DNA of 64,000 bases from Microbotryum violaceum (lineage: Eukaryota). The position numbers and the translations under genes were made by a program. The stretch spans positions 558,001 through 622,000 of the forward strand of contig CDLV01000008.1 of assembly GCA_001244265.2 (NCBI GenBank), in the 5' to 3' direction. Positions 3,812-55,388 of this stretch are shown here, in pieces. A model generated the notes under the pieces. The model worked only from the letters and a program-made list of their open reading frames with translations. It made no database searches and had not been told where the DNA came from. The first letter of the stretch is position 1; every line of letters starts with the position of its first letter.

Positions 3812-3860
<49 letters not shown>

Positions 3861-28293: not shown

Positions 28294-28335
<42 letters not shown>

Positions 28336-30373
28336 GTTTGACATTTTGAGGACCCAAAATCCTGAAAATCGTCGAGGCGCATTGCAAAAAATTGACATTT
28401 TGGGACGAAACACACGTTTCGCCCCCGAGGCGCCTGTCTACATTTTGACATTTTCCCGTGAGTCGGCCCAATTTTGGCCTACCCTGAGCAGCCTACGGCA
28501 TGACTTTGGGCCCGTTTGTCTTCGCTTCGAGACGCGTTTCGCGATGCTCGCGCTTGAACAAGTCACTTAGTACTAGCCATCTTCGGTAATCACTTGAGTT
28601 AAGTGGCTGTGAGGGATTAGGCCGATTTGATATTGAAAGGGCGCAGGTTCCGTTCCGCTTCACTTCGGTCCGAGATTGGAGCATAGCACGACAACATCAT
28701 CCCATGCAGGCCTTAAACGATGCCTTCGATTGATTATTACCGCTCACCAACATGAACATGACGATCGCCGAGCTCCTCCGAGTCGCTTTCGATGTCGCTC
28801 CCGCCGACGCGTCTCTTCACATCGAGTTGTCCAAAGACGAGCTCACCTTATCATCTACTCGAGGCCGTTGAGAAGGCAAACAGCTTCTCACGACCAATCG
28901 TGCGTCTACCAAGCTCAACTATCGAAATTTTGGTCTAAGCTCACGCGTGTTTGGTTCTACACAGCCCACACAATTGAAACTTCCTCCTCAAGTTGTCGAT
29001 GCTCGCGATACCAATTTCTCGCTGAACTGGCCAACCTGATTGCCCATCAAGCTGCTCATAAGTGTAGCCACCTCAAGCTGTCTCACTCAAGGGAGGCCGA
29101 TGGAATCGAGCGACCCAACTCGCGGAGAGGCAGGCGTAGGGGTTAGCAATACAGAGGAAGGACGCAGTGCAGCACATTCAAGCGTCTTGAAAGGGTTGGT
29201 ACAGTACATGGGACCATCTCGCTGTGAAGACATGGCGGGCACGACAAGGAGCTTTCGCTGGACTAGAGGTGACCAGGTGGCCCGAGCGCTCACAACAAAC
29301 GAGATTCAGAAGAACGCCTATATTGAGGATGGCCGCATTCAAGTGAGTTGTTGCTGAATTCAGGAACGAAGGCAACTGGATCTAATGTTTTGCCGGTCCT
29401 ATACTTTTAGGAACCTCCCTGAGAGAGACAAGCAGTATGGAGCGCTAGCACAACGCTATCCTCATTTTGGATTGCTTGACGGAGCTGTAACCGCTGCTAC
29501 ACCATTGGAGATTGGATCTCTGATCTGCTTTGACCTCAAGCGTGGCATGCATTCACTCAGCTGCGATCAAACTGTTTATGGAGAAGAAGCGCTGTCTATC
29601 GGAATTGGTACGTTGTTTTGAGTGGCAGTTGAGGAAGTTCTCGTTTGACACAAGTCTTGTGTCCTACAGTGCGACACATCTACAGCAAAGTGACAACAAA
29701 CCGCTGCAACCAAGACACGCTCGCCTCGTTGGTTCTACTCTCAAATGTCGTCGTACAGGAGCTTCGCCTCATCAAGAAAACATGCTATTCCACACACCTC
29801 ATTGATGGCACTATGCCGTTCCGCATGATTGATGGTCGACAGGTCATCGAGTCATTAGGCCCGTCAACGACTACATATCGTTCAACCACGGACCTTACCT
29901 CATGTTACCCGGACGAGCGCCTAATCAGCACGAGCGCACATGCCGAGCAAAGGTTTGCCGCCCTTCGGAGCGTGCCCGGCCTGCGAGATGCCGCCGGCAG
30001 AACCTCTACAAGTCGCACAAATGCCACCGCGGAAACAAGGAGCTCAACTTCAGCAAAAAGGAAGTCTGACAACGAAGCAGCGAGCCAGCCAGCAAAGCAA
30101 GGAAGGCTTGTTTGAAGCCTGGAGCCACGCGCAACACCAGCCGAAGCGACGCGCGCCGCAAGCCACTTTCGATAGGCCGCCGCGCGCCCGCAAACGCTCG
30201 GAACGCGTTTTCGAGGACTTTTGAGCGATATTTGGAGCATGTAGAACACATTTTGATAATATTTCCGAGGCGCATGCGAAATTTTGACATTTTGGGGCCA
30301 AAATAGGGTAAAAACCTTTGACAAAAAGGCCAAAAAAGGGCGTTTTTCCGCATGCGCCTCGGGCTGGGCTTTC
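28266..30373 (+). mobile_element. P-element-like transposon copy 2, internally deleted (non-autonomous); its right TIR is interrupted by the KDZ element
   Basis: Left TIR GGACCCCCGGAAAGCCCAGCCGGAGGCGC and right GCGCCTCGGGCTGGGCTTTC. Subterminal TTTGACATTTT motifs occur at both ends, with poly-T at 28295-28334. The 3' part matches copy 1 but the catalytic exon is missing. Confidence 0.8.
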
Positions 30374-30511
30374 CACCTGTGGCTATATACATAAGCACGC
30401 TAAAAAGTGGCGCGCACCGCGCGCCTCCGACCCTCGCTTCCGCGCGACGTAGCCATACATGTTCCCCCCCCTTCAACCCGGGTTGCTGGATGGCCCGAGG
30501 ACTAGCGCAAC
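30374..30511 (+). repeat. Left terminal inverted repeat of the KDZ element
   Basis: Reverse complement of 55163-55301 with scattered mismatches. Confidence 0.92.
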
Positions 30512-31072
30512 ACGGAGGCTGGTGTGGCCTTCAACACGTTCATCTCAGGTACGTGCGAGCTCGTATCGGGGTAATCCAACCTTATAAATGCTGCCATTGC
30601 GTATAAAGCATATTCGGAACACTCATCCTCAATTTCTTCTTTAGATTAGTAGCGAGAAGAAGCTCGATTAGAACATCATTACATCATTACATCATTATAC
30701 CATTAGCGGAGGGGATAAGGTAGCATTGATGGAGGTGATTAAGTCACGTGCCGTCTCACCACGCTGGCAGTAGCGAGCCTGAGCGCGAGCGAGCGATAGC
30801 GTTGCCGCTTGACGCGCCGTTATGGATCACAGTCCTGGTCTTACTACTTTCTGTTCCCTTCCGCTTTCGGTCGTATATCTTGACTCGAAGCCATCCGACC
30901 ATACGATATGTTGCCTCTCCTGTCTGCTCCCAGTAACGCGTCAGCGTTTGCCGCTCCGACCGTGAGACGCGTCCTCGTGTCTTGATTGTTTTGTTATTGT
31001 CTGCTGACCCTACTCCTCATTCCTCGTTGTTACCGCCGAAGATGCTTTGGTGCAATCGACCAGCAGCCCCGA

Positions 31073-32767
31073 ATGGGGTCTGTACTGTCGTCCTCAGCGA
31101 CCGTTCAGACACAACAGCACCACATTTCTGCTTCCAGCATCGCGGAAGATGGACGAAGCACGACGCTCGCCTCAAGGCCGACCACGTCCAACTCGTCCAA
31201 CTCAATGAGTCATCGAATCGAAGAGGTTCAGGATGAGATCCGAGCCCTCCACGATGCCGTTCGAGCGTTGCCTTCGACTTCGCGCCTGTCATCGTCGCAA
31301 AAGGAGACCCACGTGCTCTATAACTTGCAACGTCGCCTCGAAAAGATGCAATACTGTTTGCGGCATGGAGTTCGGGACGACGATCTCGACTCGTACACGC
31401 CCCCTGCGACTCGAAGCAACGACCGAAACGACTGGAATGACTTCAAGACCAGCCGCTTCTTCCGTTGTCTCCTCGAAAAGAACGGACTCGAGGGTAAGTG
31501 TAGCGTCTGCCTTCCTGACTCATCCCGAAACCGTTTACTCTCCATTACAAGACGCTACTCTGACAGACAAATCCATCACTCGGACCCCTACAAAGTCCCG
31601 AAAGACTTCTCTGCGCTACAGGCGATTGGATCACGCTACTGGGAACAAGTCAAAAACTCACCAGAACTCTGGGAACAATGGAAGGAAGCGAGGGCAAGTG
31701 AAGCGCGTGATCGAAAGGAGACCGCTCGGCCCCTCAAGCGATGGCGAATCGATTCTGCTACCATCTCCAAACTGCGGCGCAGATACGAAAATGCGATGAA
31801 CGAGCTGGTCCGTGAAGACTCGGCTCTCCGTTTCCGCCTCCTCAGAGGCCAAGTTCCCCCTGCTGACTTACGTAGCTCGGCACCGAATTAGGTTGAGCAG
31901 TATGCTGAGGGCTACGGCTTCGACGCGTTAGTCATCGTCAGCTCGAACAAGCTCGAGAACAAAAATGATCGTTTTATCGTTTCTACGCTTGGCGGCGCAG
32001 CTTTCATGCGGCGCCAAGGCTGGGATTCTGACCAGCGAAAAGATATTCTAGTCAACTTCACGGATTGCGTTAATAGGACTCGGTTTAATCAGAAGCAAAA
32101 TGAACAATATAAGATGCGGGGTTTGTCAAGCAAGCTTTAGGACGTATTTTGTGCTCGGTGATGGATTGGCGCTGATCCCAAATTCTGATGAGCAGCTAAT
32201 CATGGCGATGTTGACAAGGCGTCTCAACGAGTGCTCTGCGCATGGTATAGCATCATAATCGACGATCACTATAGTGAGCAACCATTCCACGGCTCTGCGC
32301 CCACATTTTGCAGCCTAGTACTGAACATCTGTGGCCGTGCAGATCAAGCGCTCCGTCGTCGCCACCAGAGAAATAGATCTACTCAGCCCTACGTGCTTTC
32401 CAAGCTTACGAGTTATAACCAGGCAACTCTTGCGAAGGATCCAATCGCTCTTATTGTCGAGTTCGGAAATGGTCTTCAAGAGCGTGATTTCTGCAGTCCC
32501 ACAAATGGCAAGAAGCCGACCGTTGCGGATTTGAGAAGAATCATCCCTCTGATGCGACAGGGTGGCCTTACTTTCTCACTCAAAGAGGAGATAGGCCAGG
32601 GCTCTTTTGACGGCACTCGTGCCGAAGGTACTGTGACAACCGGACAGTTGGAAACGGAGCCAGAAGACCAAGTCTCTGGATCTGATTCTGCTTCTGCTTC
32701 TGATCTTGGTTCTGATTCTAATTCTAATTCCGATTCTGATGCTGATTTGGGAGCTGCAACATCCTGA
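31073..32767 (+). CDS. KDZ-associated accessory protein with an HMG-box-like segment and acidic Ser/Asp tail
   Basis: Spliced ORFs 30986-31891, ~31892-32120 and 32231-32767. Motifs RNDWNDF and IGSRYWEQVKNSPELWEQWKEARA resemble HMG helices. The gene lies inside the TIRs. Confidence 0.5.
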
Positions 32768-33136
32768 TTCCGAATCCGACTACATTTCTGTTGTTCAGTA
32801 TATTGTTGGTGCGCCTATCGCGCGTTGAGATAGATGGCCAAACTTTTTTTAGTCGTTGAGGTGATATTGACCTGTGTGTGGCAAGAGGTATTCAACAAGT
32901 TTACACGCATCTTGACCAGCTGATTCGTCCGTTGATCAATTATGCGACGCGATTTTGATCGCAAAGCAAATAGATTTACTGACGCCTAACGTTTCAGACT
33001 TTACTCCGGACATTCAATTCAGGCATTTAATGGATGTCCAATTAAAGCACTCATGCATCCTACCCAATGTCAAACTGCAGTTAAGCTCGCCCCAGAGCTT
33101 GGGGGTGACAACAGCAAAGCACCCAAATTTCTCCGA

Positions 33137-33737
33137 CTACCCCTTCGGACCCCCGAGACGCCGGCGAAGTGAGAGCAGAACCTTCAAGCTGTCGAGAATG
33201 TCCGTAATAACACGCTTCGCGTTGGGTTCTCCAAACGGTGTGCCCGCAGTGAGAATGAAAGCCGAGATTATTCGTTGACGCTGGAACAATAGATATAAAA
33301 CAGAAGCAGGGAACAAGGTAGTTCGGCAGTTCTGACCTGCAGACGCAAGATCGCAAGGTGTCCGAGCTGGCCAGCTGACCATATGTGCCAGGGAAATACG
33401 ACGCTGCATTACGCGTAATCAATGCCTTTTCTGCTGAATTGTCAATGGAAGGGCGCGTAAACTCGGCATCGATATAATGGCAGCTTGGTGCTGAGGCGTC
33501 AATGACTTCGTAGTAGCAAAGCTCGCTGTTGGCCGAGTCGCTTGCATACACTGCAAGCTTTCATATAGGTCCGACGCGCTCGGTGCCGACTACGTATTCA
33601 AGTTGCTTCCCGCCTGGGACAGGCAATGTGCCAGGTGGCCAGTATATCTTGTCTCGTGCAAATACTCGATGACCTTGACCTTTGTGTCCTGCAGAGAGAA
33701 TCGCTGATTGTAACTTGTCGTGATTCGCTGAGGGCAT
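33137..33737 (-). CDS. Small spliced hypothetical protein inside the KDZ element
   Basis: ATG at 33737 (MPSANHDKLQ) and consecutive minus-strand ORF segments 33561-33884, 33081-33551 and 33137-33409. No recognisable family. Confidence 0.35.
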
Positions 33738-33910
33738 CGGATCGGATCGGCTGTGACGCGCTCGGTGTCGGTGATGCTGTGAGAGGAGAGCGCGCGCGCT
33801 CGGTGACGTGAGGTGACGCGAGGCGCGACGTGTACCCCGGGGGTACACATTGGGACACTGCTCTTTCCCTCTCACCGATCTCACCCCTCACCCCCACTCC
33901 AAGTTCCAAC

Positions 33911-35353
33911 ATGGCACCACGCGCCACCGAGGGCGAGCGCGCCTGGCTCGACATCGACTCGCATCTCATCCGTGACGAGTCCGGCCAATGGCGTGTCCGT
34001 TGTGAACTTTGCAACAAACACTACAAGCTGCCTGGAGGGTACAGGTCACTCGACGGACCAACTGTAGCACCGGAACATGCACATGAGGCCAAACGAAACC
34101 TAAAAAAAAAATCATTCGTATACACAAGCGCGCGTTCAATTCGTCTACGGTCGACAGTCGGTACAGATGCAACGAGGCGGCGTTTGAGCTGATCGGTACC
34201 GACCGTGAGGTCCAAGCAGTGAGTGCTAGACAGCTTTCCCAGGAGATCAGAAACAAACTATGTGGAGTTCGGCTAAACCTTTGTTGATGTACTTGTCTGA
34301 TCTGATTAGGGTTTTGGCCACCTAAAGAAAAGATACCGCCGGCAGTTGCAGGCCAAGCTTGACATGTTGGAGGCGCCGGGGAAGCGGACCGTGCGAGGCA
34401 CGACGAGTGGGCGGCGGAAAGGGCGCGTCGGCTGGTGATGGAACCCAAAGACATCATGACTCAAGACCCAATCCCGAGGACGTCGAAATTTTGACTATGA
34501 GGTCCGGGAGGAGATCGACTACGTTATGTGGCCTGTTTGGGATGAATGGGCAGGGTACAAAGGGAATGGACGTCTGCCTCGGAGCCTGTTGACCGTGCTC
34601 ATCCATTGGAGGAACGTGTTGTTCGATGCATACGATAACCAGAAGCGAAAGAGAGGTGGAGGGAGTGCGAGAGTTTTGAAGGAGTATAGGACCCGCATCC
34701 AAGACTTCGACGATATCCTCGCGCGCATCTTCACCGTCCCCGTCGACATTGCCGCCGAACATGAGGAATTGCGCCTATTCAGAGAAATCCTTTCACCCCT
34801 GTACCAAGAGTGCCAACGCCCCCTCCCTGAGGACGATGTAAGAACCGACGAGGACCAGGACGGGGAGTGACCGCCTTTTAAGATGGATCCGAAAGGTGTA
34901 CCGCCCTTTTCTCGGGAAACGTGTCCCGGACGATTACCGGGATCAGTTAGAAAGCGAACATCGCACCTGGCAAGCAGCGCTCAGACCATTTGCAACGACG
35001 GTGCTCGTCCACGTTCCCGAACCTCCCAAGCCGCCCACCGATGCGGACCTCGAGCCCGAAAGGAAGAAGATCTGGGACTCCTGGATTGTTGAGTGTGCCC
35101 ACATGTGGTTGGCGCTGTCGAGCAAACAGAGGGACGCGTATTGTTGGATGCGCAAGAAGGGGTCCGGCGGAGAGGGCGCCGCGTCGACCTCGGGGCACGA
35201 GAGGAGGACGCGATATCGGAACACAGCTCGGCGACCGGCCAACATTCCGACCACGGATCGGCAGCCGGTTCGGAGGCCGAAAGCAACCTCTCCACCCTCT
35301 CCGAGCTGACCAGTCTGAGCGAGCTGGAGCGCGGCCTGGATACTGGGACATGA
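33911..35353 (+). CDS. KDZ-associated hypothetical gene or pseudogene with an N-terminal CxxC zinc-finger-like motif and C-terminal HMG-like helix
   Basis: MAPRATEGERAW...VRCELCNKHY at the start and IVECAHMWLALSSKQRDAY later. Several frame breaks could be introns or decay. Confidence 0.4.
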
Positions 35354-35756
35354 GGCACCATGAGTGTCAATTCAACGGTTAGGCGATGACCATCCCGAGT
35401 TTTCCGTGAGCGTGTGTAGCTGTCTAGCTTGTATGTTGTGTTAATGGAGATCCTGCTCTGCAATCATGATTCACTCCGAGGTACAACGCACTCCGAAGGC
35501 GGAAATTCTAGTTCAATCTTAAACCTTAGGGCAGGGCGTAGATACACTACAACAGAGTCCTGCGCCTTCGGAAACGAGGAAGCGGTATGCGACGACATGC
35601 TTCATCAATTCTTGGACACTCTTAACAAGCACTGTACAACCGGCGTGGCGATGTGTACCCGCCGGAGGTACACACGACCGGTGCCCTCTCCAGCTGTGTA
35701 CCCCTGGGGTTCCACGGCTCAGGCGCGGTCCGTCGCCGCCGACGGCCTTGCTGACT

Positions 35757-36195
35757 GCACTACAACAAACTCCCACGCCCCCGTTCAGAGCTCAGGATGT
35801 GTCTGCAGTTACTGAATGGAACACCCTCCTGCGACGAAACCGACGAAATATTCGTTTGCTACATCCGACTTGCACTCTGAAAAGCCCGCAAGGCCCATGC
35901 ACTTCTCTAACTGAATCTCCGTTCGAACCACCGAGCAGAGCGAAACTGCACTAGAACAATCTTCCACGCACCCAATCGAAGCTCAGGATGTGTCTGCAGT
36001 TACTGAACGGGATACCCTCCTGCGACAAGACCGACGAAAGATTCGTTTGCTACATCCGACTTGCACTCTGAAAAGCCCGCAAGGCCAACGCACTCCCTAA
36101 CTGAATCTCCGTTCGAACTACCGAGCAGAGCGAAACTGCACTACAACAAACTTCCACGCTCCCGCTCAAAGCACAGGATGTGTCTGAAGTTACCG
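35757..36195. repeat. ~190-bp tandem repeat, ~2.3 copies
   Basis: CAGGATGTGTCTG recurs at 35793, 35984 and 36174, with the intervening sequence conserved. Confidence 0.9.
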
Positions 36196-36269
36196 AAAGG
36201 ATTAACCGCCTGCCGTTGTAGAATCGGACATGTTATTATACAGTGATCTGCCACCGGTGACCGGCTTGG

Positions 36270-36488
36270 CACCCCCGGGGGTACACAAGGCGCAAGCGGG
36301 AAAGCGCCTGTGTACTCCCGGGGGACCCCGCTTGCGCCTTGTGTACCCCGGGAGTGATCACACCCTGCGCGCCGAATGACTGTGTACCCCGGGAGTACAC
36401 AGCTTTGTCGACGGCACAGGCCGGGTCCCCGGGGTTACACTCTTGTCGCGCGCCGACTCTGTGTATGTGTACCCCCGGGAGTACACAG
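36270..36488. repeat. Cluster of palindromic TGTGTACCCCGGGRGTACACA motifs
   Basis: Variants at ~36271, 36309, 36340, 36381, 36423 and 36467; also at 33830, 35652 and 35695. Confidence 0.88.
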
Positions 36489-37017
36489 CCCCTACAAGGT
36501 CCTTGGCCGATGGACCAATATCCCTGCTCACTCGACTACATAAACTATCACGTCAACGGAGTAGGTATGCGGTGACGTATTTCATTGATTTTTGCTGACA
36601 TATTATCGCAAGCACTGTACAACGGAGCGCCGTTGGACGCGTCTGGACCCACTTCGGGGTGCTGTTGGAACAGAACAACTACAGCAACACCAATCCTCAC
36701 CGCCCCCGCCCCCTCTGGCAACGTTCCCAAACCTGAACCTGAAAATGTCAGCACCGATGCGCACCAATTTTAGTTTTCAACTTAGCAGAACCTTCAAGCT
36801 TGTCACGTACTGCTGCAGTTCGGTGAGTGGGGCCGTGGCGACCGGCTCGTGGGATCGTGGTCGTCAACGCGTCAACGCCTCATTAAGGCTGACATCCATT
36901 TTACTTTTGTGCACTGGCGTCCACATTCTACCATGTGTGATATGGGCCGCATACAAAAAGCAAAGTACTTCAATAACAAATAATCTACAGTCAACAAATG
37001 CGCCAAACCATCCCTAG

Positions 37018-40000
37018 CTAGCCCATGGGCTCGTCGAGAATCTCGAGGTCGTCCGAGTCTTCACCCCTTGTCGAGCCTGACTCTCCGCCGCCCTCCCCGA
37101 GCTCAGCATCATCTTCTTCCTCGACCTCCTGCTCCGATAGTGAACCCAAAAGTTCTTCCATTCGTCTTTCATACACGTCATCACGGTCTCGCTCGGCCTG
37201 CTCCGCGGCTGGATCGGGGGTCAGGCCAAGTTCCCTTCGGAATGCATCGAGGTCGATGGGTGTGTGGCGCACGTCCACGGCAGAAGGACCTGATAAGCTG
37301 CGGCTCGACTCAGCGATGGGGCTCTGCATTTGAGTATTATTTAGCGTCGAAAGGCGGCGACCGAAATGACGTGGACTGCCGCGCGAACGGCGCGACACCT
37401 GTTTCGCCCGTCCGGCGAAAAGTCCCCCGATCAAACCAAATGCCGAGGGCCGCGATTCATGAACTGCGGGTGAACGCGTTCTAAGCCAGACAACCGAGAG
37501 ATCATCGCGTTCGGCGAGCCGATCCAGACGCTCTTTGAACGAAATCTGCCGGCGTTGAAGCACATGCCACACCGCAGTGCCAATCTCGCCCGCGCCGTCA
37601 GTTCCGAGAAGTTTCTTAGCCGCTTCGATCGTTTCTTCGGGAACTAATAGAAGGGGCGACGTAAGGTACAGCACCAACACAAAGAAAGGGTGTGTCCATC
37701 TCACCTCGGTCCTCTGCCCATGCCTGAGATACCCTAACAAAGCGAGTGTCCTCATCTTCGAGCCACGCAAGTAGTTGTCGAACCTCAGCTCCGATCCGGA
37801 GAATCTCTTCTTCCGCCCTGGCTTTGAGTAAAACCGCCTTGATCCCTTTCTGAACATCGGTATCAATCGCCCAAGGCGCAGTGTCGTATACGAAAAAACC
37901 GTCTTGCCAGAAAGCGTCCGTTGGCGACAGAGTCACAAGCGACTTAATTGTGGTAGCGAGCGGTAAGTTGTCCAGAATCTGGGCCGATTGCTCGGTCGCA
38001 GCATTTCGGTAATCCCCGACCGCTTTATTGTACATATCGATTGCCACTTTTACTTTCTTGCTGTGCGTCTGTGAGACGCTGACAAGCTTGCTGGCTTCGA
38101 CTTGACCGATTGTCGCGCCGCTTCGTCCCCGACCCATTGAGTCAATTCGTTCTTGACAGCATTGCAATTGGACCGTCGCTTTGTGCAATGCGCGAAGTTT
38201 GACTACGCAGTTGCACAAATGCTGGAAATCTAGGTATGTCATGGGACATCAAACATCAGGTGGCGATACTCATAAAGATAGGACGCGCGCCGCACCTGAA
38301 GCTGCAAGCTCCTTCGTGCGATCGTATTCTTGTTGGTAAGCTCTTAGCTGTTGCTGCAAGCGAGCCTTCGCTTCATCGGAAGCCATTGGATCAAATCTGA
38401 ACACACAATGCCAAGACACAGTGTCAATTTTACGCCCTCGTCCTCCAATGGGGTTTGACGCGCCGAACGTACAGCCTTTCTTCCACGTGGTGTAGCCTCT
38501 GTACAATTTTAAACAGCTCTAATCGCTCCTTGTCCTCGTTCTCCCGACATTGACCCGCCGTTGTAGCCGCTTGAGCAGCTCGTTGTAAATCCCATTGCGC
38601 GAGAAGGTCAGACTCGGACCATATTGCCGAAACGTCACTCAGATCAGTTTGTGCCCTTCCAAGCTGATCTTGAGCATTCGACAGTCGTCTGCGGAGCCAA
38701 CGGCCTAGAATGGACGATGAATGAAGGGACCGCACAATTAAGTAACGAACACGGCGTGAAAGTGTGGATGGCAGAGCATACCGAGGCTGTCAACACCGTT
38801 CTTGTTCATCAGGTCGATGCGACGCGAGATGTTGACGCGCCGGTGAGAAGCGCTCGCAGGACGATTGATCGGGATGAGCGATCGGAGCTGACTCCAAACG
38901 CGTTCGCATCCCTCCCCATCCGTCAACCCAAAGTGCTGAATCAGGCGCGGGTTGTACTCAAGCTGGCAGGGCCATTGATGAGCAAAAGCATGAAACACGC
39001 TCGTGGCAAACTTCAATCTCGGAAACAGATCGGGAAGGATACTTCTCTGCAGGCGATCGAAGTACAGTACAGGTCAGCGGCGCCCGAGGGCCAGAAATCT
39101 GAGAAACGACGGATCCGCCACTCTTGCTGACCGATTGCATGTAGCCGTCCAAATTACACGCAACATCATACAGCACTCCGAGTGTATCGTTGGAAGGGAG
39201 TTGGTTCGAAATATGTTGCAGCAGCGATAAGCCGTAGTAGCGCCTGCCTCATCAAAATCGAGCGTCAGGCCTTGTAAGCGGTTGAAAGAGGAGCTGAGCT
39301 GACGAACTTTTCGCCTGATTGATACAAATTGACCATCTTCAACGCGATATCGTGACGGCAAACACAGGCAACTAGGCCCGTATCGGACTTGCCCCGCGAG
39401 ATTTGTGTCGCACCGCCGTTGGCCGCTTTCCACGAATCGGCACAGGCCTTCAAGACGCGAGAGGAAGGGCGTCAGCGCGTTGAAAGGATCGCAGGGGGCG
39501 GCTCGGATCAGCGGACCTTTTCTGACTTCTTGCTGTCGCCACCATCACAGATCTCCTTCATCGAATCAAGCTCGCCTTCGCCGATGAAGAGGGCTGGCGT
39601 CGACTCCTGAAAATCGTATTTGGCTGAGGTGTCGCGAGAATGTTAGAAGTTGCCATCCAGAGCGACAAGATGCTGCACTTCGACTCTATGGTGGGCTTGA
39701 TTTAGACGCGTCGATCCGTAGCATGCTGGACACTTATCCGAGAGAGAACCCGCGACACCGAGGACGAGGTCGCCCAATTCTCGCTCGGATGTCGTGAGAG
39801 CCCGAAATTCGTCAAGGGCGCGCTGGAGTTGCTTTCGCAGCTCCTTGTCCTGCGCGAACGATGATAAATATCAGATAATGATCAATAGCAACCATGACAG
39901 GGGGTCGAGCTCACGAATTTATGCTGACTCAGGCCCGGCCGACCCCATCCAGTTTGCTCGTAGAAAATGTCGAGCCCGCGAGCTGCTCCATCAACAGGAA

Positions 40001-40930: not shown

Positions 40931-41020
40931 TGTCTGATGCAAATTCGAGAATGTATTACTGTGTGTTACAATAGTTGGTGCTCGTCTTAGAACTGAGGCG
41001 GGTCTGATTTGGCGCTGAGC

Positions 41021-44279: not shown

Positions 44280-44544
44280 ATCCGGTCGAGCCGTGCAACG
44301 TAGATCATTCCATGTTGTAAAAAAAACATCACGGTGACCCGTGATCGATCGGCGAAGAGTTGAGAGGGTGAGCTCTTTTAGTAATACTCTGCGAATGCGC
44401 GGTCACCAGCCCTCATGGCCTCATTAGCGCCCGCTAGTGCCCGCCTTGCTCGCCGTATGAATGCTTGATTCGCACCCGTTCCGACCACATACACACACCG
44501 CCTCACACCCGCAACCCCTCTACTCTACCAGCACCACCCTCAAC

Positions 44545-45801
44545 ATGAGCTGTACGTACCTTTGGGCCTGCGTTTGGTCATCGGCGTAGTGTCGAGCCTG
44601 TCTGGGCCCGTTGCTGACTCCGCGTTGACCTCCACCTACTCACCTACTCTCCCTCTCCCTCTCTTGCACACCACAGACAACGGCGTCGGCTTGTCGACCC
44701 CACGTGGAACAGGCACGAACGGCCACATCCAACGCAACTGGTCCCACCTGCGAGCCCGCGACCCTCTGCCCCGCGTGACGGCTCCGGGGCCTTCTCATCG
44801 TCGACTTCGTTCGGCGGCGCTTCGACCGGACTCGCCTCGCGTGCGCCCGATGCGGGCATCCTCGATCACGAACGTCGGCGCAGGGTCGAGGTGCAATGCC
44901 TCGAAGTCCAAGTTCGGCTCGAGGACCAGGAAGCGCCGGTGCTGAGCGAGCAGGAGATCGAGCAACAGGTTGACGCGCTAAGGCAACGCCTGTTGGTGCA
45001 GAGCCAGGAAGCGCAAGGGAAGGAGAGAAAGGGCCTGATCCAGCCCACGAACGACACGAATTGGCGCAGGCCAAGGCTGTTGCGGATGAAAAGTTGCGCA
45101 AGGCGTTGGGGATCAGCAAGGACCATGTGGAGGGGAGGGCGTTCGACCGCGTCGAGCAGGAGCGGTTGAAGGAGGCGCGCAAGGCCGAGTGGGAACGCAA
45201 GGAGGAGGACAAGCGCTCCCGGCAAGAAGAGCGAGTCAAGCACCAGCAAGAACTTGAGAGGCTCAAACAGCAGCACGAGCACGAGAAGAGCCGACTCAAG
45301 AGGGACTATGAGAGGCGGGGTGGGGCACCGCCGGCGGGCACTTCGTCCGAGCTGCCGCTGTCGGCCGCAGCAAGGAGGTCGACCACGGATCGAAAGAGGT
45401 ACAGCCGGAGCCCCGAGGCTCTCGTGCGTCGTCGGAAGGACTCGAGATCGATCAGTCCCCCGCCTCGTCGACGCGGTCGCAGCCCTTCGCGTTCCCCGTC
45501 TCGCTCTCGCTCCCGCTCCCGCTCGTACTCGCGGTCCCGCTCCCCACCACCTCGTCGCGGTGCCGCCGCCGGCTCGTCTGCAAAGGGGAGAGGTCGCTCC
45601 CCGACTCGGTCCGTCTCCCGTTCCCGTTCGCCCATGTCGCGTTCGCCTTCTCCGAGGAGATCCAGGACGGCAGAGGCCATGGGGACCAAGCGGCCCCGAT
45701 CGCCGAGTCGGTCGCGCTCACGTTCGCCGAGGTCGAGGTCGGCTTCAATGTCGACGTCGTCGTCGTCGACGCCACCGAGGTCCAAGGCGAGGGATGACTG
45801 A
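44545..45801 (+). CDS. CWC21: Pre-mRNA splicing factor CWC21 (SRRM2 N-terminal homolog) with an RS tail
   Basis: MS|YNGVGLSTPRGTGTNGHIQRN, ILDHERRRRVEVQCLE and an RS-rich C-terminus. Two apparent single-base frameshifts (~44780-44845, ~45045) are probably assembly errors. Confidence 0.9.
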
Positions 45802-45987
45802 GCTCTTGCAAGGGGCGCGCATGTGTATGAATCAGATCATGGCGTATGAACGTTTAATGCACAGTGGGGAGGGATCGGTTCGTAGGATTCTTTTTTTTCT
45901 TCAGGGGGGCAATGCTTGATCAAGATGATATAGGATCCTCCCCATGTGGTGCCCGTGGGACCGCTCGCTCGGAATACTACAAAAGCT

Positions 45988-47232
45988 TTATTGCTTCAAC
46001 AACTGCTCGATCGTCGTCCGCTTCTCGATCACATCCGCTACAGCGTTCTGCAGGGCGAGGTGAAATGGAGGGAGAGAGGAATTTCCGATTAGTTGCGCTC
46101 CGTGCAAGGTGCTACGAAGCCAATGTCAGATCCGGGCTGACCTTGACCTGCAAGAACTGCTCGAACGCGACGTAGGGTATCTTTTCCCGATCGCAATGCA
46201 CGGACAGGTCGTTCGTATGGCCCGGAACGATCTTGACGAACAAGAGGTCCGCCGCACGCGCAGCCGACAGATCCGAGACGCCGTCGCCGCAAAAGAAAAG
46301 GGTCGGCTTGTGCTCGAGATCGCGGTAAGGGGACGTCGCCCGCGACTTGTCGTGGCCAAAGCCCGATTCGGGGTGACGAAACTTGATGGTCCATTTGCCG
46401 TTGGGGAGGTACTCGACGTCGTTGGCGATAATGTCGATCTTGGCCGCGTCCTCTTTGCCGACGAGATTTTCCATGATGGCGCGGATGATGGGGACCATGC
46501 CGGACGAGACGATGACGACGGGGACGTCATGGGCCTTACACCATTCGAAGAAGGATTTGAAGCCGGCATCGAGCTTGATCCTGTTGCGAAGGTACTCGCG
46601 CGTCTCGTCAAAGGTCTTGTTAGCCGCGACCGAGTCGATCATTTCTCGGAACGCGTCCCTGCACGCCAAAATAAAAAATTGGGAGGACGACATCGTGATC
46701 AGCACAAAGCCCTGCCCTAACGGACCATGCAGATCCCAAGGTTTGACTGACCTAAAGTTCCTGGTGCCGTTGAGAACCTCGAGGTTGATCGCGCGTCGTT
46801 TCTCGAGTCCACAGCCGAGCTGTGGAAAGACGAATTGATCTCGGCCGTCAGCGCTTCAGCACCGGTCCTAGTCGAGCCTGCGGAGTGGACGCCCGGGTGG
46901 ATTCTCCAGGATCTGTACTTACGTTGTCAGTGGCGGCATCGTTCGAGTCCTCACTGTAGACGAATGCAGACAGGATGTGAGCTACCTGCGGTGTGCGGTG
47001 GGTCACTCGGGAGCTGCCAAGTTGCTCTCGCGAACGAAGCCTGGAGGTACGCACGTGGTGATGGTGCCGTCAAAGTCGGTGAAGACGATGTAGGGCGCTT
47101 GAGCGTGGGGAAGCAAGGACGAGGATCTGGGGCAGGAGTGGAGTGGAGTAGGAGTCGGTGTCAGCGGAGTCCGGTTCGGGGTGTGGTGTGCAAATCGGCA
47201 CGTTCGCGTCGAAGGTGGAGGATGACGACATG
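45988..47232 (-). CDS. HAD-superfamily phosphatase (MtnX / yeast YNL010W-like)
   Basis: VFTDFDGTIT (motif I), IVSSGM, FGHDKS and FCGDGVSDLSAA. Spliced; the start codon is uncertain. Confidence 0.88.
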
Positions 47233-47651
47233 GGGTACTTTCCACACTCGATGCGACTTGAAGCGTCGAGAATCTTGAGCGTCCCCGTTGCGAGGCTCGT
47301 GATTGTTACTCACGCGCTCATTTCAAAAGATGCCAGAGATGAGCGAGTGCGGATGGGGTGACGGCAAGTGGTGGAGAGACGAAAAATCACCGAACGCGAA
47401 CGGGCTCATATTCGCGGTTATAGCGCGATCGTACGAGAACGTACGGGGCAGTACGGGGCGGTAGGGGCCTCCTGGGGCAGTGCTGTGTGAGGCCTGGGTC
47501 AGACAGTCGAGCCGGGCGGCGTGGCTTTCTCCTGGGGTCGCCGCTCGCGTCGCACTCGCGTCGCAACCTCAACCTCCGACTCGGCCCCTCCGATCTTTTG
47601 CACACCTTAACGGCCCTCTTGATTGAGTGGTCGTCCGCTGCGGCCCGGACC

Positions 47652-49845
47652 ATGTCGACGACGACGCCTTCCAAGCCGGCGCGAACGACGGCGGCGACGG
47701 CGGCCAGCGCCTTGTCGACGTCGGACACGGTCGTACTGCTGCTGCAACACATATGCCGTACCTTTTACGACACCGAGCAGTCCATCCTCGTCGACTCGAT
47801 CCGTCGCAAGTCCGTGTCAGTCATCGGTCGCGCTCCGAACCTTTCGCTTCTCCTGTCTTTCCCCACTTGGGTCCCGTCGTGTTCCCATTCTTGCCAGCGT
47901 GGACTGACCTTTGCTGCTGTCTCGCTGCATTTGTTCCCTCCAGACTCAGTATCAGGGACGATGAGCTGGCTGGGATGATGTTGATGCAGAAGAAGGACGT
48001 TGCCGCCGTCGCTAAGCGGCTGATTGAAGACCAACTCTTGTCGAGGTGAGCTTCAGAGGGCTGGAGATCATCCCAGAAAGCCCCACCACATGCATTCGCT
48101 ACAGCATTGCCTCTCCCGTCACCTCCCCACGCCTATCAGCTTCATGCGCCGGGAAGCGATCGAAGGCACGACCAAGAGCTTCACCTACAAGCGCAAGACC
48201 GAGGCGATGCTTAAGGGCCAAAAACTCGGCCAAGACGACGGCCCCAAGATGCAGAACAAGACCTACTACTACATCGACCCGTCCAAGACGACCGATAACA
48301 TCAAGTGGAGACTCTACCAGGTCAGAAAGGTTTTGGACGACCAGGACAGGAATGTGCGTACTCGTCGGTCGAGGACAACATTTGGCGGTGCCAGGGGGTA
48401 AAACCCTGACTTTTGTTACTTTCGTTCGCTCGCTCTCTCTTTCCGTGTCACGCCTCCCCCTGCAGGAGCTCGACGCACAAGGCTACTTCTGCCCGCTGTG
48501 CAAGGCCGAGTACACCCACCTCGACGCCGGCGGGTTGCTCGATTTCGCTCGCAACGTCTTGGCGTGCTCGATCTGCGGTACCGAGGTCGTCGACAAGGAG
48601 ACAATCGTCGTGTCCAAGAGCGCTCACGGGAACGTGCAGAAATTTATCGAGCAGACCAAGACCGTGAGCGAGCTGCTGAGGAGCATAGAAGAAGGTGTCT
48701 TGCCGAGGTCAGTCTTCTGGCAGCTTACTCGTGGTGGGTTCCTTTCAAAGTAGACGGTCACCGAGCCCTGATCACTCGTCATGGTCGCCTCGTTCTTCAC
48801 GGTCCCATAGGTTCGACATTGAAGAGTGGTTGGCCGCGAAGGACGCCGATAAGGCTCGCAACGTTACCCACGGCTCCGGTGACAGCCACCGGCTCGCTAA
48901 CGTGAACGTCCAGATCGCCGGCGACGAAGACGAAGAGATAGAGCGCTTGAAGCGCGAGGCTGAAAAGGAGGAAAAGCGACAGCAGAACCAGTTACCAACC
49001 TGGATCGCCAACTCGACCGTCACGGTCGAGGCGAGAGAGGCACCGGTTTACCATCCTGCGCAGTCGGATGACATGAAACCTCGGCTCGGGCTCGATGCAG
49101 CATTGTCGGCGGCAGCGGAAGAAGGCCAGCCGACGCCCACGACGGCAGCAACTGTGGGCGCGGGTGTCGAGGGAGAGTCACATGCAGGGCAGGACCCAGA
49201 AGAAGACGATCTCGACGCGTACTATGCCCGCATGGTCGCTAACAATGTACCGCCACCAGCAGCGACGACCACGAGTGTCGAGCGATCGCCCCTCTTCTCG
49301 CCGCTCGCGACGCCCGCGGCGCTGGAAGGATCTGCGACCCCCGTCGCCGCGACCGACTCTCCGCTCCCGCACGCAGTCAAACGAGCTCGTGAAGACACCG
49401 ATGGTTCCAACATCGCCGATCGCAGTAAAAAGTTCAGGGTCGAAGATGTCGTGAAGGGAGATGCGGATGCGGGCAGAACTGACGATAAAAGTGGAGGTGG
49501 AGGTGACGTTGCTGGTGGCGACGATCACGAGGATGACGACGACGACGATGACTTTGACGAGGTCGAGGACCCTAACCCGCTCATCACCGTCGGCGAACTC
49601 CAGATCGCGTTCGACCAGATCACCGAGGCACACACGGAGGCGATGGTAAGTTCTCAAGCACTGGCTGGGGAATACATGACTTTTGAACCTGACTGACCTC
49701 GTCCCGCGCGGCCGTTTCTCACCAATAAGACGCCGGAGGAATACACGGCAAGTCGAAAGAGCAACCGCTTACTTTCGCAAGTACTGACACCGCGCTTTTG
49801 TACCCTTCTTAGATCTATTTTGACCACTATAGTCGACTCGGTTGA
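47652..49845 (+). CDS. TFA1: Transcription initiation factor TFIIE alpha subunit
   Basis: Winged helix (YYYID...DNIKWRL), zinc ribbon GYFCPLC...CSICGTE, QQNQLPTW and an acidic C-terminus ending M|TPEEYT|IYFDHYSRLG*. Confidence 0.9.
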
Positions 49846-50020
49846 ATTCAGTCACTTTTTCGGCACCTGTTGTAACACAGAGCAGTTCTGCATCGACGGA
49901 CCCATCTGCGAGGCTTGGGAACTCTGCACAGAAACTTGACTTGACTCAATCGTGCTGTGCGATCCACTCGCGAACAAGATGTACTGGCCCATGATGATCG
50001 AAAACGAACGAAATCCCGGA

Positions 50021-50234
50021 CCGCGGCCCCAGAGCGCCCTTACTCCCGTCACCGTCGCGTTCCGTACATCCGATGCGGCACTCGATCACGTCCATCATCC
50101 CTTCCGCTCCGACCGCCAAGCGCACTCGACCCACTCCATCAAATCCAGATCCAAGGCGTGGTATCGGTCGTCGTAGGCGAGAGATGGCCGTGCGCAGGTA
50201 AGCGAGCACACACAAACAGGACATTCACACACAC

Positions 50235-50287
<53 letters not shown>

Positions 50288-50518
50288 GCGCGCGCGCACA
50301 CAACACACGTTCGAAGCAGGGAGGTCCGAACGAAGAGCTACAGATGTGTAGCAACGGGCGTCGAGTTCCAAGTCGCGGTCAGGCAATCAATCACGCGGGC
50401 TCGACGATGGAAGGGAGTCGCAAACAATCCGTAAGAGCCGTGAGTGCAGGCAGGAGCAAAGCGTAGCAGAGCCGTAGCGCCGCCAGCATGCGCCAGCAGG
50501 CTCCAGCAGGCTCCAACA
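50021..50518. repeat. Inverted copy of the 3585-4074 repeat with a (CA)n microsatellite
   Basis: Direct comparison with 3585-4074. Confidence 0.95.
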
Positions 50519-50762
50519 CGCTCCAGCAGGCTTCAGCAAGCGGGGTGCGGCTGTCCTGCGCCTGGGCCAAGCCTGGGGCGGGTCTAGGAATAGAAATCGA
50601 ATTGGCTCAATAACTGAAAATCGCTCTGCAAGTGCTTCTTGCGCTCCACAGCGTTGGTTGCCTCAGCGTTGGTTGCCTCCAAAAAAAAAACAAAAAAAAA
50701 AAGAAATCGAACACGCAGCGCTGCTCCTTTCAAGGCGACTCTGTGGCCCCCGACTTCTTTTT

Positions 50763-53700
50763 GTTTATTTGATAGACTTCATTAACAGCATAATTATATT
50801 GATGCCTAGAAATCTTCGGAAAAGTCGGAGGGAATGCTGTTACGCACACTGACAGAAGCCAGTAGTGTAAGACTCATTGACCCTGAACCAGGATCAACCA
50901 TACCCACTAAAACCCCCTTTGGTGTCTTACAGAGACACTAGGCGACCCTTGGACTCCTGGATAGAGGCTCGAAGCCCCTCGAACTCCGTTTCGGTGATCG
51001 GTTCCAAAAGATCCGACGAGAATCGACGACGGCGACACAGCTTCCAGATCGAGTGAAAGAAGAGGACTCGTAGTTCGACAAGTCGACGTTCCGAGCGAGA
51101 CACGACCGGGCATACAAAGTCCACAAAGACTGGGTGGGGGGTCGGGGACAGAGCAGACCAGAGGCGCCGGGCAAATGGGCAGCCGACCGCGAGGTGAACC
51201 AGGCACTCGGGTGCTTCCGAGAGGCACATCACACAGGAGGTAGATCGATTGTTGGGATGTGGGCTGGTTGGGGAGGTGACTTGGCTTCCCGGATGGAGGG
51301 ACCCCAGGGAGAGAAGGTGGCCGATATCCTCGGCGTCCGAGTGAACCCGGCGAACCTTGCGCAAAGCCTTCCACCAAGCGTTCCAGCGTTGCTCAGGCAA
51401 ATCGAATACCTTCTGGTGTCCCTTGGGGAAGATAAGGGGGAAGATGAAGACTTGGTGGCGTTTGGACGCGTTCACAAACGAAGACGGGGTCATCACCTCG
51501 CCATCGGGCCCTCGAAAAAGCGTCGGGTTTACCGAGAGTTGTATTCCGTGGCCCGCTGGGAGATAGAGTACGTGCGTCGCCCATTGCTCGAGGTTCTGGC
51601 TCTGGAGAGTTCCGGGGGATTGAGCGTGGTCACCGACGCCCAGGCTTCGAAGTATCGGACCCAACGAGCAGGAAGAAGTTTTGTCGTTTTTCTCACCACA
51701 TGGTCCCACTTTGGGGAGGGTGGCAAAATTGTGCCCACCAGATCCAAATCCAAGGGCAACGATGCTGGTTGGGGCCGGTCTGGACAAGGTGAAAGGGGTT
51801 GGTTCGTTTGGTGCCTGGAGGCGGATGCGGATGTCGAAGAGGTGGCGTGTGAAGCAGCCGTCCGGGGCCCGGAGCTGGAAGACCCACTTCGCGTGATCGA
51901 TTGCTAGACGCCGAGGCATATCAATCAAACCGAAGCCGCCGTGATCAAGAGGGGCGCAGAGGTGCGACCGGGAGACCTTCGGACGTCGCTGAGTACCATC
52001 CGAAGCTCGACCGTGAATGGCGAGCATGGCGGCCTCCTCGATCTCCTTGACAACGCTCTTGGGGGCGGGAAGGAATCGGCTGTAGTACAAGATCTTTGTG
52101 TAGCAGTAGATGTTGATGATCGAACACTTGGCTGCATATGGGAGATCGTACATCGGAATTGAGCGTATCCGAGCGATGGTCGAGGCCTTGACATCTTCCC
52201 AGCCCGCATCCTCGGCGATCTCCACCCCGACCTGAATACCAAGGTAGCGAAACTGCGAATCGCTGAGACGCCAGGTCCCGAGATCTGGGGCGATAGACCG
52301 ATCCCGAAAAGCTCCAAGGGGGTAGAGGAAAGATTTGACGTTGCTGAGCTTGCTGGCACTTGCCCGTTCGTAAAGCTCAATCGCCCGATTGAGGTGGTCG
52401 AGGTCCGAGAGGTTGTGGAGTGCGCAGCAAGCGTCGTCGGCAAAAAGGAGTTCGCGAACGTTTTGGAGGCCCGCAATATCGATGCCCTTGACTCTCAATC
52501 GAATCTGACAGGCAAAACCTTCGATCGCCAGGACGAAGAGAGACGGAGCCAAAGGATCACCTTGCCGAACGCCCGACAAGATGTCGAAAGTGGCAGAGAG
52601 CCAACCGTTGAGGAAGACCGATGCAGATTGGTTGGTGTAGGTCGCTCGGTACCATTGGCGGGCTTTGGGGCCGAGGCCAACGGCGCAGAGGACTGCATCA
52701 AGGTACGGGTGGGAAAGACGATCGTAAGCCTTTTCAAAGTCCATCACCGCTAGCATGCCAGAGAGCCCGGAAGTCCAGGGTCCATGAGACATTGGACTTC
52801 AGCGATGTTCGTGCCGATCCAACGGTTCGGAACAAAGCCACGTTGGGTTGGGCCGATCAGGGACTCGAGCAAGGGAGCGAGGCGCTGGTTGTGGGCTTGC
52901 GAGATGATGCGCTCGTCCGCATTGATGAGCGATATGGGGCGTTTGTTCGAAAGCTGATCCCTCTCGCCGCGTTTGTGGATGAGATGGATGTGGGCGGTGT
53001 TGCGGGGAAGAGGTCCAGGCTGACGGGCCTCGGTGGGGATCGAGTTGATGACGTCTCGAAGAATCGGGCCAGTGGCCGGCCACGTAGCGCGATAAAACTC
53101 AACCGGGAGGCCGTCAGGCCCTGGCGAAGAGTTCGACTTACACGCCGCTTGAGCCTTTGTCATCTCCTCCAACGGGTACGCTTCTTCGAGCTTGAGTGAG
53201 TCCGCGGGGAGAGGCGAGTTGAAGCGAGGCCGTCGATGATCGCCTTCAGGGCCGCGTCATCGATGGGGCGGTCCTCATAGACCCGCTCGAAGTAGTCGCT
53301 GGCCGCTCCAAGCATCGAATCAGGGTCGGAATCAGGGTCGGAATGAACAACATCGTTGACCGTGAGCGAAGAGATCAGGTCGGATGCTCGCACTTTGCGC
53401 AGGCGGATGAAGATGGAAGAGGGACCCGCCAGAGATGGGTCGAGGCGGGACCGCAGGGCCGCGCCGTAGCGCGAGTGGTCAGCCCTCTCTTGCTCCGACC
53501 CGCCACGACGGAATCGAGCGAAAGTCCGGGCCAGAGCCTGCAGCTCGGGCAGCAGGCGGTGTTTGGTGGACGTCCAAGCTGCTGGTGGATCGTTGGGCGT
53601 CTGGAGGAGGGCTTTGTTGTAAAGGGTGCGGACAATGGAGGTGAGGTACTCGCAGGTCGCGTCGCCCTCGATCACGTACAAACCCAGCTTGAATTTGCCC

Positions 53701-55092
53701 GGACCGATGTCGATTGCGCCCGGCACTTGGAACCGTGCCACAACCATTGAGTGCGTCGATTTGAGGACAGGAGCCCAAATTTTGTGATCATGGAAGAGGT
53801 CGACCCAATCAGGCGAGACATAGATGCGGTCAAGGCGACGGCACGTGCCGGGCGCTGAGCGATTCGTCGTGGCTCGTCCTTTGGGATGATGGAGCCGATA
53901 GGCGTCGAAAAGATTGTTGGCCGTGGCAAGGTCGCGCATCTCCTGACCCCCATAATTCGTTCCGTTTTGGTTCTCCGAATCGAGGGGCTGGGACTCAACA
54001 CAATTCCAGTCCCCCCGACTAGGAGCGCAGGCGGCGAGGGTTCGTCACGTACAACTTGTCGGAGGGCGGTGCTGAGGTGTGAGAGGAAGCGTTTTTTGTC
54101 TGGCTTGTCGGAGGAAGGCGCGTATATTGGTACAACCCGGACTTTTGAATCACCCACACAAAAGGTGGCGTCGGTGACTCGGTCCGGGAAAGAGAAAGAG
54201 GCACGAAGAGTGTTTGGAGGCGACTCGGGATCAAAAGTAATGACCACGGAGTCGCTCTTCCAAAGTATGGCAGTGTTGTTGAAAGGAGTGAAAAGAGCGG
54301 AGAGCTTTAAGTCTTGGCACTCCTGAGTCCACTGGGCCACCCTTTCGGGGGAAGGTTGGCCAGTTTCGCTCAGGAGAAAGACGTCGGCGTTATGGGAGCG
54401 GAGATTGGAGAAAAGAGAGGCACGCTTACGGTCTTCATTGATTGACTGCACGTTGGCAGCAACAAAAGACACGTTTGGGATTTTAGTTGTGCTCATCATC
54501 TTGGTCCATAGCGTCTTCCACGTCCTTAGGAGGTGCTTCTTGGTCTTCGGCTTCTTCGTCGGCCTCGTCGTCGGTGTCGGCGTCATCGGGTCGGGCTTTG
54601 GGCGCGGCTGAGGGCAACGGCGTGGGCGAAGACGGCTCGGGCTCGGCTCGGAGGCTTCGAGGGCAGGCGCAGTGGGAGGGGCTTCACGAGTGGCTGGCTT
54701 GGAGAGGGCGGCAATCGACTTGGATCGAGTTATGATCGACTTTGGCGTGGCCGGAGGAGGGCTTGGGGATGGAGAGGTGGTCTCTGAGCTGGGGGACTCG
54801 GAGGATTTTTCAACGAGGGAGTAGGCAATTCCCTGATTGGAGGCAGGCTGGGGGCAGGAGGAGTGGCAGTTTTGCAAGGGAAATTGAAGGAGAACTCGGG
54901 GCGGGCATTCTTCGACAGAGAATCGGGCTGAGCTCTGTTGGGCAGATCTTCAGTCTGGGCTGCCAGATCCTGTTCCACTCGACGTTTTTTGGTCATGCGG
55001 TCGTGGGCGGAGGCCGGGGAGATCGACTTGGACACGGCGGCGGGGGCGGCGGTGGTAGCGGTGGAGGCTTGCGGGGCACGTGACGTGGGGGG
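50763..55092 (-). mobile_element. 3' part of an L1-clade LINE (ORF1 tail, APE endonuclease, RT, zinc-finger C-terminus, 3' UTR), starting at a C6 run
   Basis: Near-identical reverse complement of 56237-60570. Contains NVQSIN, LSET, RLDRIY, DFEKAYD, GVRQGDPLAP and FADD. Confidence 0.97.
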
Positions 55093-55162
55093 AGGTTTGA
55101 AGAGACAGCTCTGCGGGCGACTGCACAAGTACTCCCTAACAATAGGTCAATCTCATTAGCAA

Positions 55163-55301
55163 GTTGCCCTAGTCCTCGGGCCATCCAGCAACCCGGGTTG
55201 CATGGGGGGGCAACATGTATGGCTACGTCGCGCGGAAGCGAGGGTCGGAGGCGCGCGGCGTGCGCCACTTTTTAGCGTGCTTATATATATAGCCAGAGGT
55301 G
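55163..55301 (-). repeat. Right terminal inverted repeat of the KDZ element
   Basis: Reverse complement of 30374-30511. It is followed by CAC and then CTGGGCTTTC. Confidence 0.92.
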
Positions 55302-55388
55302 CACCTGGGCTTTCGGGGCTACCAACTAATTTTTCCTCTCCCCCTCTTCGGGGTGACTTAATTTTTGGATTTGGCCGACTTGAAAAAG

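Follow-up and report, generated by a model that had tools for sequence, protein, structure and literature searches.

How do four housekeeping genes come to lie between the terminal inverted repeats (TIRs) of a DNA transposon? The question is raised by a 64,000-bp stretch of the Microbotryum violaceum genome (assembly GCA_001244265.2, contig CDLV01000008.1, positions 558,001 to 622,000), referred to below as the window, where inverted repeats some 25 kb apart enclose a KDZ transposase gene, two halves of a long interspersed nuclear element (LINE) and the host genes AFG1, CWC21, a HAD gene and TFA1. The original prediction, made from the sequence of the window, had taken the whole unit to be a giant, cargo-carrying KDZ element. 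The analysis presented here leads to another answer: the element was probably a KDZ transposon of ordinary size, dead by now, into which a repair-type event placed a duplicated host gene block bounded by LINE sequence. Evidence from public sequencing runs comes from the contigs (not the reads) of four runs from four studies aligned to positions 36300-55420; the runs were picked from 21 listed, 20 of which contained the stretch. Figures separated by slashes refer to these four runs in a fixed order.

The two inverted repeats, 30374-30511 and 55163-55301, are 94.2% identical over 139 columns of a blastn alignment. The first 37 nt of the TIR are found at only these two sites of the window when up to three mismatches are allowed, and none is expected from shuffled sequences. 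The 10-mer CTGGGCTTTC, which matches the window four times against 0.26 expected occurrences, is present on both flanks, at 30364-30373 and 55305-55314; the left one directly abuts the left TIR, and the right one is separated from the right TIR by CAC (55302-55304). A third site, 3567-3576, is the same position in the other copy of a repeat that we call X. Copy 2 of X (28856-30373) extends exactly to the left TIR and is 89-96.5% identical to copy 1 up to the junction. At its end (3567-3581), copy 1 reads straight through from CTGGGCTTTC into GGGGG, and copy 2 reads CTGGGCTTTC, the element, CAC, CTGGGCTTTC again and GGGG. Since X copy 1 is uninterrupted at this point, it represents a paralogous empty site, and the two TIRs are the ends of one insertion with a target-site duplication (TSD). 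The target duplication is thus real.

With a single insertion seen, the duplication can be read in two ways, as 10 bp with a 3-base filler or as 8 bp followed by CACCT. The latter pentamer (55302-55306) is the reverse complement of the last five bases of the element; it resembles, in this single case, the palindromic addition left by off-centre opening of a hairpin. The interruption of X copy 1 at 2136-2680 is a 545-bp 5′-truncated LINE fragment with a TSD, CTATC.

The form in which this KDZ family normally occurs can be read from the public runs. Contigs of all four contain a joint that leads from 41020 directly to 55087, skipping 14,066 bases, with five letters shared (depths 6.6/145/210/46; shorter sides of 19/19/34/19 letters). 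A second, independent line of support for a block-free form is provided by P0200, a protein of 1066 amino acids encoded by another copy in the sister species Microbotryum silenes-dioicae, which maps across the same 41020/55087 junction. It follows that the family element is about 10.86 kb long and contains no host genes; its inferred size is 10,647 + 6 + 209 = 10,862 bp (30374-41020 joined to 55087-55301). Contig depth over the KDZ part (38-65/578-1326/140-273/125-210) is 4-11 times that over the host block (10.4/118/42.6/23.3). Contigs from other copies differ from the window copy at about 0.5% of sites, and the protein cluster formed around P0200 at 90% identity includes nine sister-species members on eight contigs. 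We conclude that the normal form of this family is the one of about 10.86 kb, from which the four host genes are absent. A separate joint, present in contigs of three of the four runs, connects KDZ position 55120 via TTGTTTTA to a LINE 3′ end (50760); another KDZ copy thus has a LINE insertion of its own, 28 bp from the breakpoint discussed here. A literature search, in which not every paper mentioning both was checked, returned no description of KDZ elements in Microbotryum.

The transposase gene lies on the minus strand. The Pfam KDZ family (PF18758) matches three open reading frame (ORF) pieces within 38741-39471 (E values of 1.7e-22, 0.033 and 4.2e-11), and a CxC1 match of 23.1 bits, below the cut-off of 26.9, is located at the position expected for it, N-terminal to KDZ (39885-40193). 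P0200, which was the best representative among 1.8 billion proteins and is 98% identical over the query piece, scores 177 bits for KDZ and 19.4 bits for CxC1, the latter again below 26.9. Its residues 22-1066 map ungapped to 40933-37021 as ten further exons (residues 22-189 corresponding to 40933-40430), and residues 1-25 map 14 kb away, to 55184-55110, beside and partly within the right TIR. By this mapping the gene has 11 exons. In the window copy, exon 1 is split off by 14 kb, four bases are missing near 40428, which causes a frameshift, and at 39643-39645 a CAA codon, matching Gln in P0200, has been replaced by the stop codon TAA. With these lesions the window copy is a pseudogene and its transposase dead, and any movement of this copy would depend on transposase provided in trans. 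In contigs of all four runs, position 39645 reads G (the Gln codon CAA), at a depth of several KDZ copies. A context like that of repeat-induced point mutation (CGA > CAA) fits only 3 of the 11 sites where the window has A and other copies have G, and we conclude nothing from it.

As to the three accessory genes of the original prediction, ORFs are present at 30.9-36.9 kb. Two ORF sets were compared with Pfam, 82 selected ORFs of at least 90 amino acids from 27.8-63.3 kb and 105 ORFs of at least 55 amino acids from 30.3-41.9 kb. In these sets, the accessory ORFs of the KDZ body matched no Pfam family, and neither the family of a tyrosine-recombinase captain nor a TET/JBP gene was found. An accessory ORF of 301 amino acids gave no usable match in an Atlas protein search. 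The KDZ body also contains a tandem repeat at 35754-36201 (191-bp unit, 2.4 copies, 88% matches).

What distinguishes the window copy from the normal form is a 14,072-bp segment, 41021-55092, in which 8.9 kb of host DNA are flanked by two parts of one LINE, the 5′ part on the left and the 3′ part on the right. The halves, 41021-41833 and 50760-55092, match a full copy located just outside the element (55419-60571) at 99.9% and 99.8%, respectively. The start of the full copy is 55389 by self-similarity and 55368 by a contig joint described below. An RVT_1 domain (E 7.6e-14), weak matches to Exo_endo_phos in two ORFs (E 0.012 and 0.015) and to zf-RVT, an (AAAT)n tail, a very high copy number (depth 126-8558) and the truncated copy with its 5-bp duplication together identify the LINE, by sequence criteria, as a non-LTR retrotransposon of the apurinic/apyrimidinic endonuclease (APE) type. 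Candidate TSDs of the LINE copies, 3-6 bp beside the A-rich tail, are ambiguous and do not separate the two routes considered below. The copies at 50758-55092 and 56237-60571 differ by several 1-base indels, and the reverse transcriptase ORF is split in the full copy (290 + 483 amino acids) and is a single ORF of 623 amino acids in the split copy; such indels may be genuine frameshifts, or the assembly may contain homopolymer errors.

In the full LINE copy, the two half-ends are neighbors, with TCCCT (56232-56236) alone between them. The segment can thus be described as a circular permutation of LINE plus host DNA inserted at one point of the KDZ element. At that point the KDZ sequence is GAGC-GGGGGG-AGG, and the intact LINE reads GGGGGG-TCCCT-GGGGG. 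The junction of the LINE 3′ part with the KDZ subterminal sequence reads GGGGGG|AGG and that of the KDZ body with the LINE 5′ part reads GAGC|GGGGG, i.e., the G runs are kept and the 5 bp TCCCT is lost. These sequences point to microhomology-mediated joining, a product of repair or recombination, and not to capture by a transposase.

We next turn to the origin of the host block. Stop-free orthologues cover the whole of AFG1, CWC21 from residue 4 on and TFA1 up to residue 520 (of 529); a HAD hydrolase gene separates CWC21 from TFA1. In Microbotryum saponariae and Microbotryum intermedium the block is single-copy and its genes have consecutive locus tags (g05604-g05607 and 6705-6708, respectively); HECT_2 lies on the AFG1 side in both, 10 tags away in the former (g05617) and 8 tags away in the latter (6697). 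In M. silenes-dioicae a single contig carries the block twice, as g00638-641 and g00651-654. The first comprises TFA1 without its first 241 residues (g00638), CWC21 (g00640) and the C-terminal part of AFG1 (g00641); the second comprises AFG1 (g00651), CWC21 (g00652) and a whole TFA1 (g00654), and is followed by the N-terminal part of AFG1 (g00656) and then by HECT_2 (g00658). Window positions 18133-18171 encode the last 13 residues of g00656 exactly, and 17969-17995 encode the head of g00641, apart from one mismatch.

These data fit an ancestral order HECT_2..PP1, copy beta, copy alpha, in which the block would have been duplicated in tandem on the side of PP1, a single gene model separating the two copies. 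M. silenes-dioicae would later have undergone one inversion, whose breaks lie in AFG1-alpha and within the gene group from PP1 to HECT_2. The stretch 17969-18171 of the window, inside this group between the Ysc84 and DUF7729 genes, corresponds to one breakpoint of that inversion, the other lying inside AFG1. The group itself (PP1, class II tRNA synthetase, UBC, PCMT, Ysc84, DUF7729 and HECT_2) spans 24.8 kb and has direct copies of repeat X on both sides. None of the ten members of the 90%-identity KDZ cluster is tagged between g00638 and g00658, i.e., at the sister-species block.

The runs reveal two copies in the lineage of the window as well. At 47464-48681 the contig depth is 4.9/69/20.7/11.1, half that of the rest of the block (10.4/118/42.6/23.3), and in all four runs a contig at about the other half of the depth joins 47488 to 48652 (47489-48651 skipped). 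Together, the joint and the half depth indicate a second block copy without TFA1 residues 1-241, which is also the part missing from g00638. Half depth by itself might reflect ploidy, but the haploid reference gene set likewise has TFA1 in pieces on different contigs. A single-copy block, which the flat depth of the host block had suggested, is rejected both by the half-depth stretch and by the two copies in the protein catalogue. We conclude that the block is duplicated in this Microbotryum lineage and that the window holds copy beta, with an intact TFA1. This copy is located on the HECT_2 side of the gene group, within the KDZ element. One more joint, 49177 to 55368, is present in all four runs at about half the block depth with sides of 19-25 letters; position 55368 is 21 nt upstream of the LINE 5′ end at 55389. 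The joint is probably the 5′ end of a LINE inserted into TFA1 of the other block copy, and it suggests that the LINE starts at 55368 and not at 55389.

One can propose the following history. A canonical KDZ element of ~10.86 kb, with a KDZ transposase that has a candidate CxC1 domain, 138-bp TIRs and CA..TG ends, would have inserted into repeat X beside HECT_2, duplicating its target. Later, the 14,072-bp segment would have entered this element 70 bp inside the right TIR, within the first intron of the transposase gene or its 5′ region. The segment would be one of two AFG1-CWC21-HAD-TFA1 copies, tandemly duplicated between LINE copies, and both of its junctions would have used the run of 5-6 G common to KDZ and LINE, with loss of 5 bp of the LINE. 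Given a starting order of X with KDZ, HECT_2..PP1, LINE, beta, LINE, alpha, two routes may be envisaged. Recombination between the LINE copies could free a circle of LINE and copy beta, which would be opened at TCCCT and end-joined by microhomology at the KDZ G run. Alternatively, the first LINE could be linked to the KDZ G run by a microhomology inversion, and the LINE copies, by then in inverted orientation, could mediate a second inversion. The end product would be the same, and both routes predict that a whole LINE and, beyond it, copy alpha lie on the left of the window. We think that the insertion of KDZ into X preceded the entry of the block, because this order needs one step fewer.

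Could the 25-kb unit nevertheless have moved as a whole? This would mean that a transposase supplied in trans carried the composite, genes included, into repeat X, so that the target duplication belongs to the 25-kb element, and that the locus is a nascent cargo-carrying KDZ with two intact ends and four whole genes, which the transposase of another copy has moved or can still move. Both TIRs are indeed present and 94% alike, the target duplication is genuine, as is the empty site, and the CAA read at 39645 by the contigs of all four runs shows that there are other KDZ copies whose reading frame is open. The block has also changed its place, as it lies on the other side of the PP1..HECT_2 group than in the sister species. 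However, the LINE-bounded segment by itself fully accounts for this change of place, and a mobile composite adds a further step to all those of the history proposed above. A second copy of the composite was not seen, whole genomes not having been searched, and its excision would take away the only intact TFA1. The KDZ elements shown to move are 6.4-11 kb long (PMC11343200, PMC12810828). We consider movement of the composite in the past unlikely, and its standing as a nascent cargo element, movable now or earlier, equally so.

A different objection concerns the assembly. The junctions could be real and the inverted LINE segments (4.3 kb and 0.8 kb) threaded wrongly, or the genome could flip between isomers, in some of which the KDZ TIRs would be in direct orientation or the block would lie outside them. 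The inverted LINE arms are nearly identical: one pair, 1,144 bp apart, shares 99.8% identity over 4,336 bp, and the other 99.9% over 813 bp. With contig data only, no read evidence spans them. Several 1-bp indels, which distinguish the LINE copies, also speak for this reading. On the other hand, the two KDZ-LINE junctions are reciprocal and non-homologous and cannot be made by repeat collapse, one run has a contig that starts at 41822 and includes 30 letters of the LINE bordering the block on its left, and the window resolves 5-kb repeats, which suggests a long-read assembly. An artefact or a single flip isomer thus appears improbable. That the genes stayed in place and the KDZ halves arrived on either side by two independent events is hardly credible: nothing beyond the bare arrangement speaks for it, both LINE halves break at one LINE position and both KDZ pieces at one KDZ position, and the target duplication ties both ends to one insertion.

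Entry of the block into a resident KDZ element by a repair-type event remains the preferred explanation, and several points weigh against it. The direct repeat of 10 bp with 3 extra bases, from the single insertion seen, differs from the 8 bp (4-8) reported for KDZ elements. In three of the four contigs with the canonical joint the shorter side is only 19 letters. The junctions of the KDZ body with the LINE 5′ part and of the LINE 3′ part with the right KDZ end are known from the assembly alone. The gene order in sister species comes from locus-tag numbers and two short junction peptides, not from DNA, and fragments of KDZ pseudogenes could be missing from the 90% cluster. Finally, the sequence does not record which event came first; the composite may have arisen at another place and reached X by transposition.

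As to the original prediction, its anatomy holds: the inverted repeats of ~138 bp, the 10-mer on both flanks, the KDZ transposase gene, the four host genes (AFG1, CWC21 and HAD by Pfam, TFA1 by homologues carrying PF02002) and the LINE halves are all where it placed them, and the need for a transposase in trans agrees with the damage to the gene. The four genes do lie between both TIRs in the assembly, but 25 kb is not the size of a transposon family. The cargo-carrying giant element is not upheld, given the gene-free normal form, a block bounded by permuted LINE halves with G-run microhomology, and sister-species block copies that sit at the ancestral site with no KDZ-cluster member tagged between them.

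The arrangement has partial parallels in known systems. TIR transposons such as Pack-MULEs and CACTA elements capture genes, and Pack-MULE captures are fragments of a few hundred bases. Host DNA lies between transposon ends here as well, but it consists of four whole genes with introns and intergenic DNA. Extrachromosomal circles formed between direct repeats can re-integrate, and the permuted LINE halves match the trace expected of such an event.

Closer relatives are KDZ1-KDZ3 of Cryptococcus neoformans, which are mobile, 9.2-11 kb long and have TIRs of 139-241 bp and duplications of 4-8 bp (PMC12810828, PMC11343200); their transposase has CxC1 and KDZ domains. The Microbotryum element resembles them in size (inferred 10.86 kb) and TIR length (138 bp), in its KDZ transposase, for which CxC1 is a sub-threshold candidate, in having extra ORFs without known domains and in a comparable copy number (a few to about ten per genome in Cryptococcus). 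It differs in its duplication (10 bp and 3 extra bases, or 8 bp if the right end has a palindromic extension of 5 nt), in being known from sequence alone where KDZ1-3 were shown to be mobile, and in that this copy holds 14 kb of host DNA. Kyakuja, Zisupton and Dileera (PMC12730594), whose target duplications are 7-8 bp long, share with it the KDZ transposase, extra genes inside the element and, in the case of Kyakuja, the CA..TG termini; they have TET/JBP genes in every copy, whereas none was found here by the Pfam comparison, and host genes are in one copy only. Starships (PMC9156397, PMC11162782) are likewise large elements with host-like genes between their ends. Their tyrosine recombinase and the cargo travelling in several genomes set them apart from this locus, with no such gene, one cargo copy and no movement seen.

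The coordinates of the features are collected in Table 1. Repeat Y is found after X copy 1 and after TFA1; neither X nor Y gave a Pfam match. The HECT_2 gene of the window is 100% identical to MVLG_07024, for which a literature search returned no paper; the DNA thus belongs to Microbotryum lychnidis-dioicae or a very near relative. An uninterrupted run of 40 T lies at 28295-28334, 140 bp upstream of the HECT_2 start codon.

Table 1. Features of the window that bear on the KDZ element and the enclosed host block.
Feature	Coordinates	Strand	Remarks
Repeat X copy 1	1529-3581	+	interrupted at 2136-2680 by LINE fragment; paralogous empty site
Repeat Y, second copy	3585-4074	-	98% identical; adjoins repeat X copy 1, upstream of PP1 gene
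Repeat X copy 2, left part	28856-30373	+	final 10 nt (30364-30373) are the left target-site duplication
Left TIR of KDZ element	30374-30511	+	starts CACCTG
KDZ element body (U), 10,647 bp	30374-41020	.	ORFs at 30.9-36.9 kb, tandem repeat, KDZ gene
KDZ transposase gene, exons 2-11	37021-40933	-	pseudogene here; mapped with P0200
LINE 5′ part (B)	41021-41851	-	meets U at 41020/41021 via GGGGG
Host block (S)	41852-50757	+	four genes plus repeat Y; flat, lowest contig depth
AFG1	42248-44276	+	Pfam
CWC21	about 44679-45794	+	Pfam cwf21
HAD gene	46112-46855	-	Pfam
TFA1	47652-49648	+	homologues carrying PF02002
Repeat Y copy within host block	50021-50518		downstream of TFA1
3′ part of split LINE (A)	50758-55092	-	RVT_1 domain; 3′ end at 50758; meets V at 55092/55093 via GGGGGG
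KDZ subterminal sequence (V), 70 bp	55093-55162	.	with inner edge of right TIR holds KDZ exon 1
KDZ exon 1	55184-55110	-	P0200 residues 1-25, 80% identical
Right TIR	55163-55301	-	blastn, repeat search
CAC, right 10-mer (55305-55314), GGGG	55302-55318	+	GGGG is the end of repeat X
Full-length LINE copy	55368-60576	+	inverted orientation, directly outside element; start uncertain

The locus thus reveals, in the anther-smut fungus Microbotryum, a KDZ family built like the mobile KDZ elements discovered recently in Cryptococcus. It also suggests a stepwise route by which whole host genes may reach the inside of transposon ends without capture by a transposase, i.e., a tandem duplication between LINE copies followed by a microhomology event between LINE and KDZ. 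The intact TFA1 is the copy inside the element, and the copy at the ancestral site has lost its first 241 codons; with the ancestral gene damaged and the inner one intact, the place of an essential gene has been handed to a transposon-bounded segment. Should the cargo reading prove true, this would be the first DDE-type KDZ element shown with core genes, including the TFIIE-alpha gene TFA1 in the only intact copy of the lineage. Excision of the segment, if it ever occurs, would be either lethal or a true cargo transposition, which makes this locus a good natural test case.

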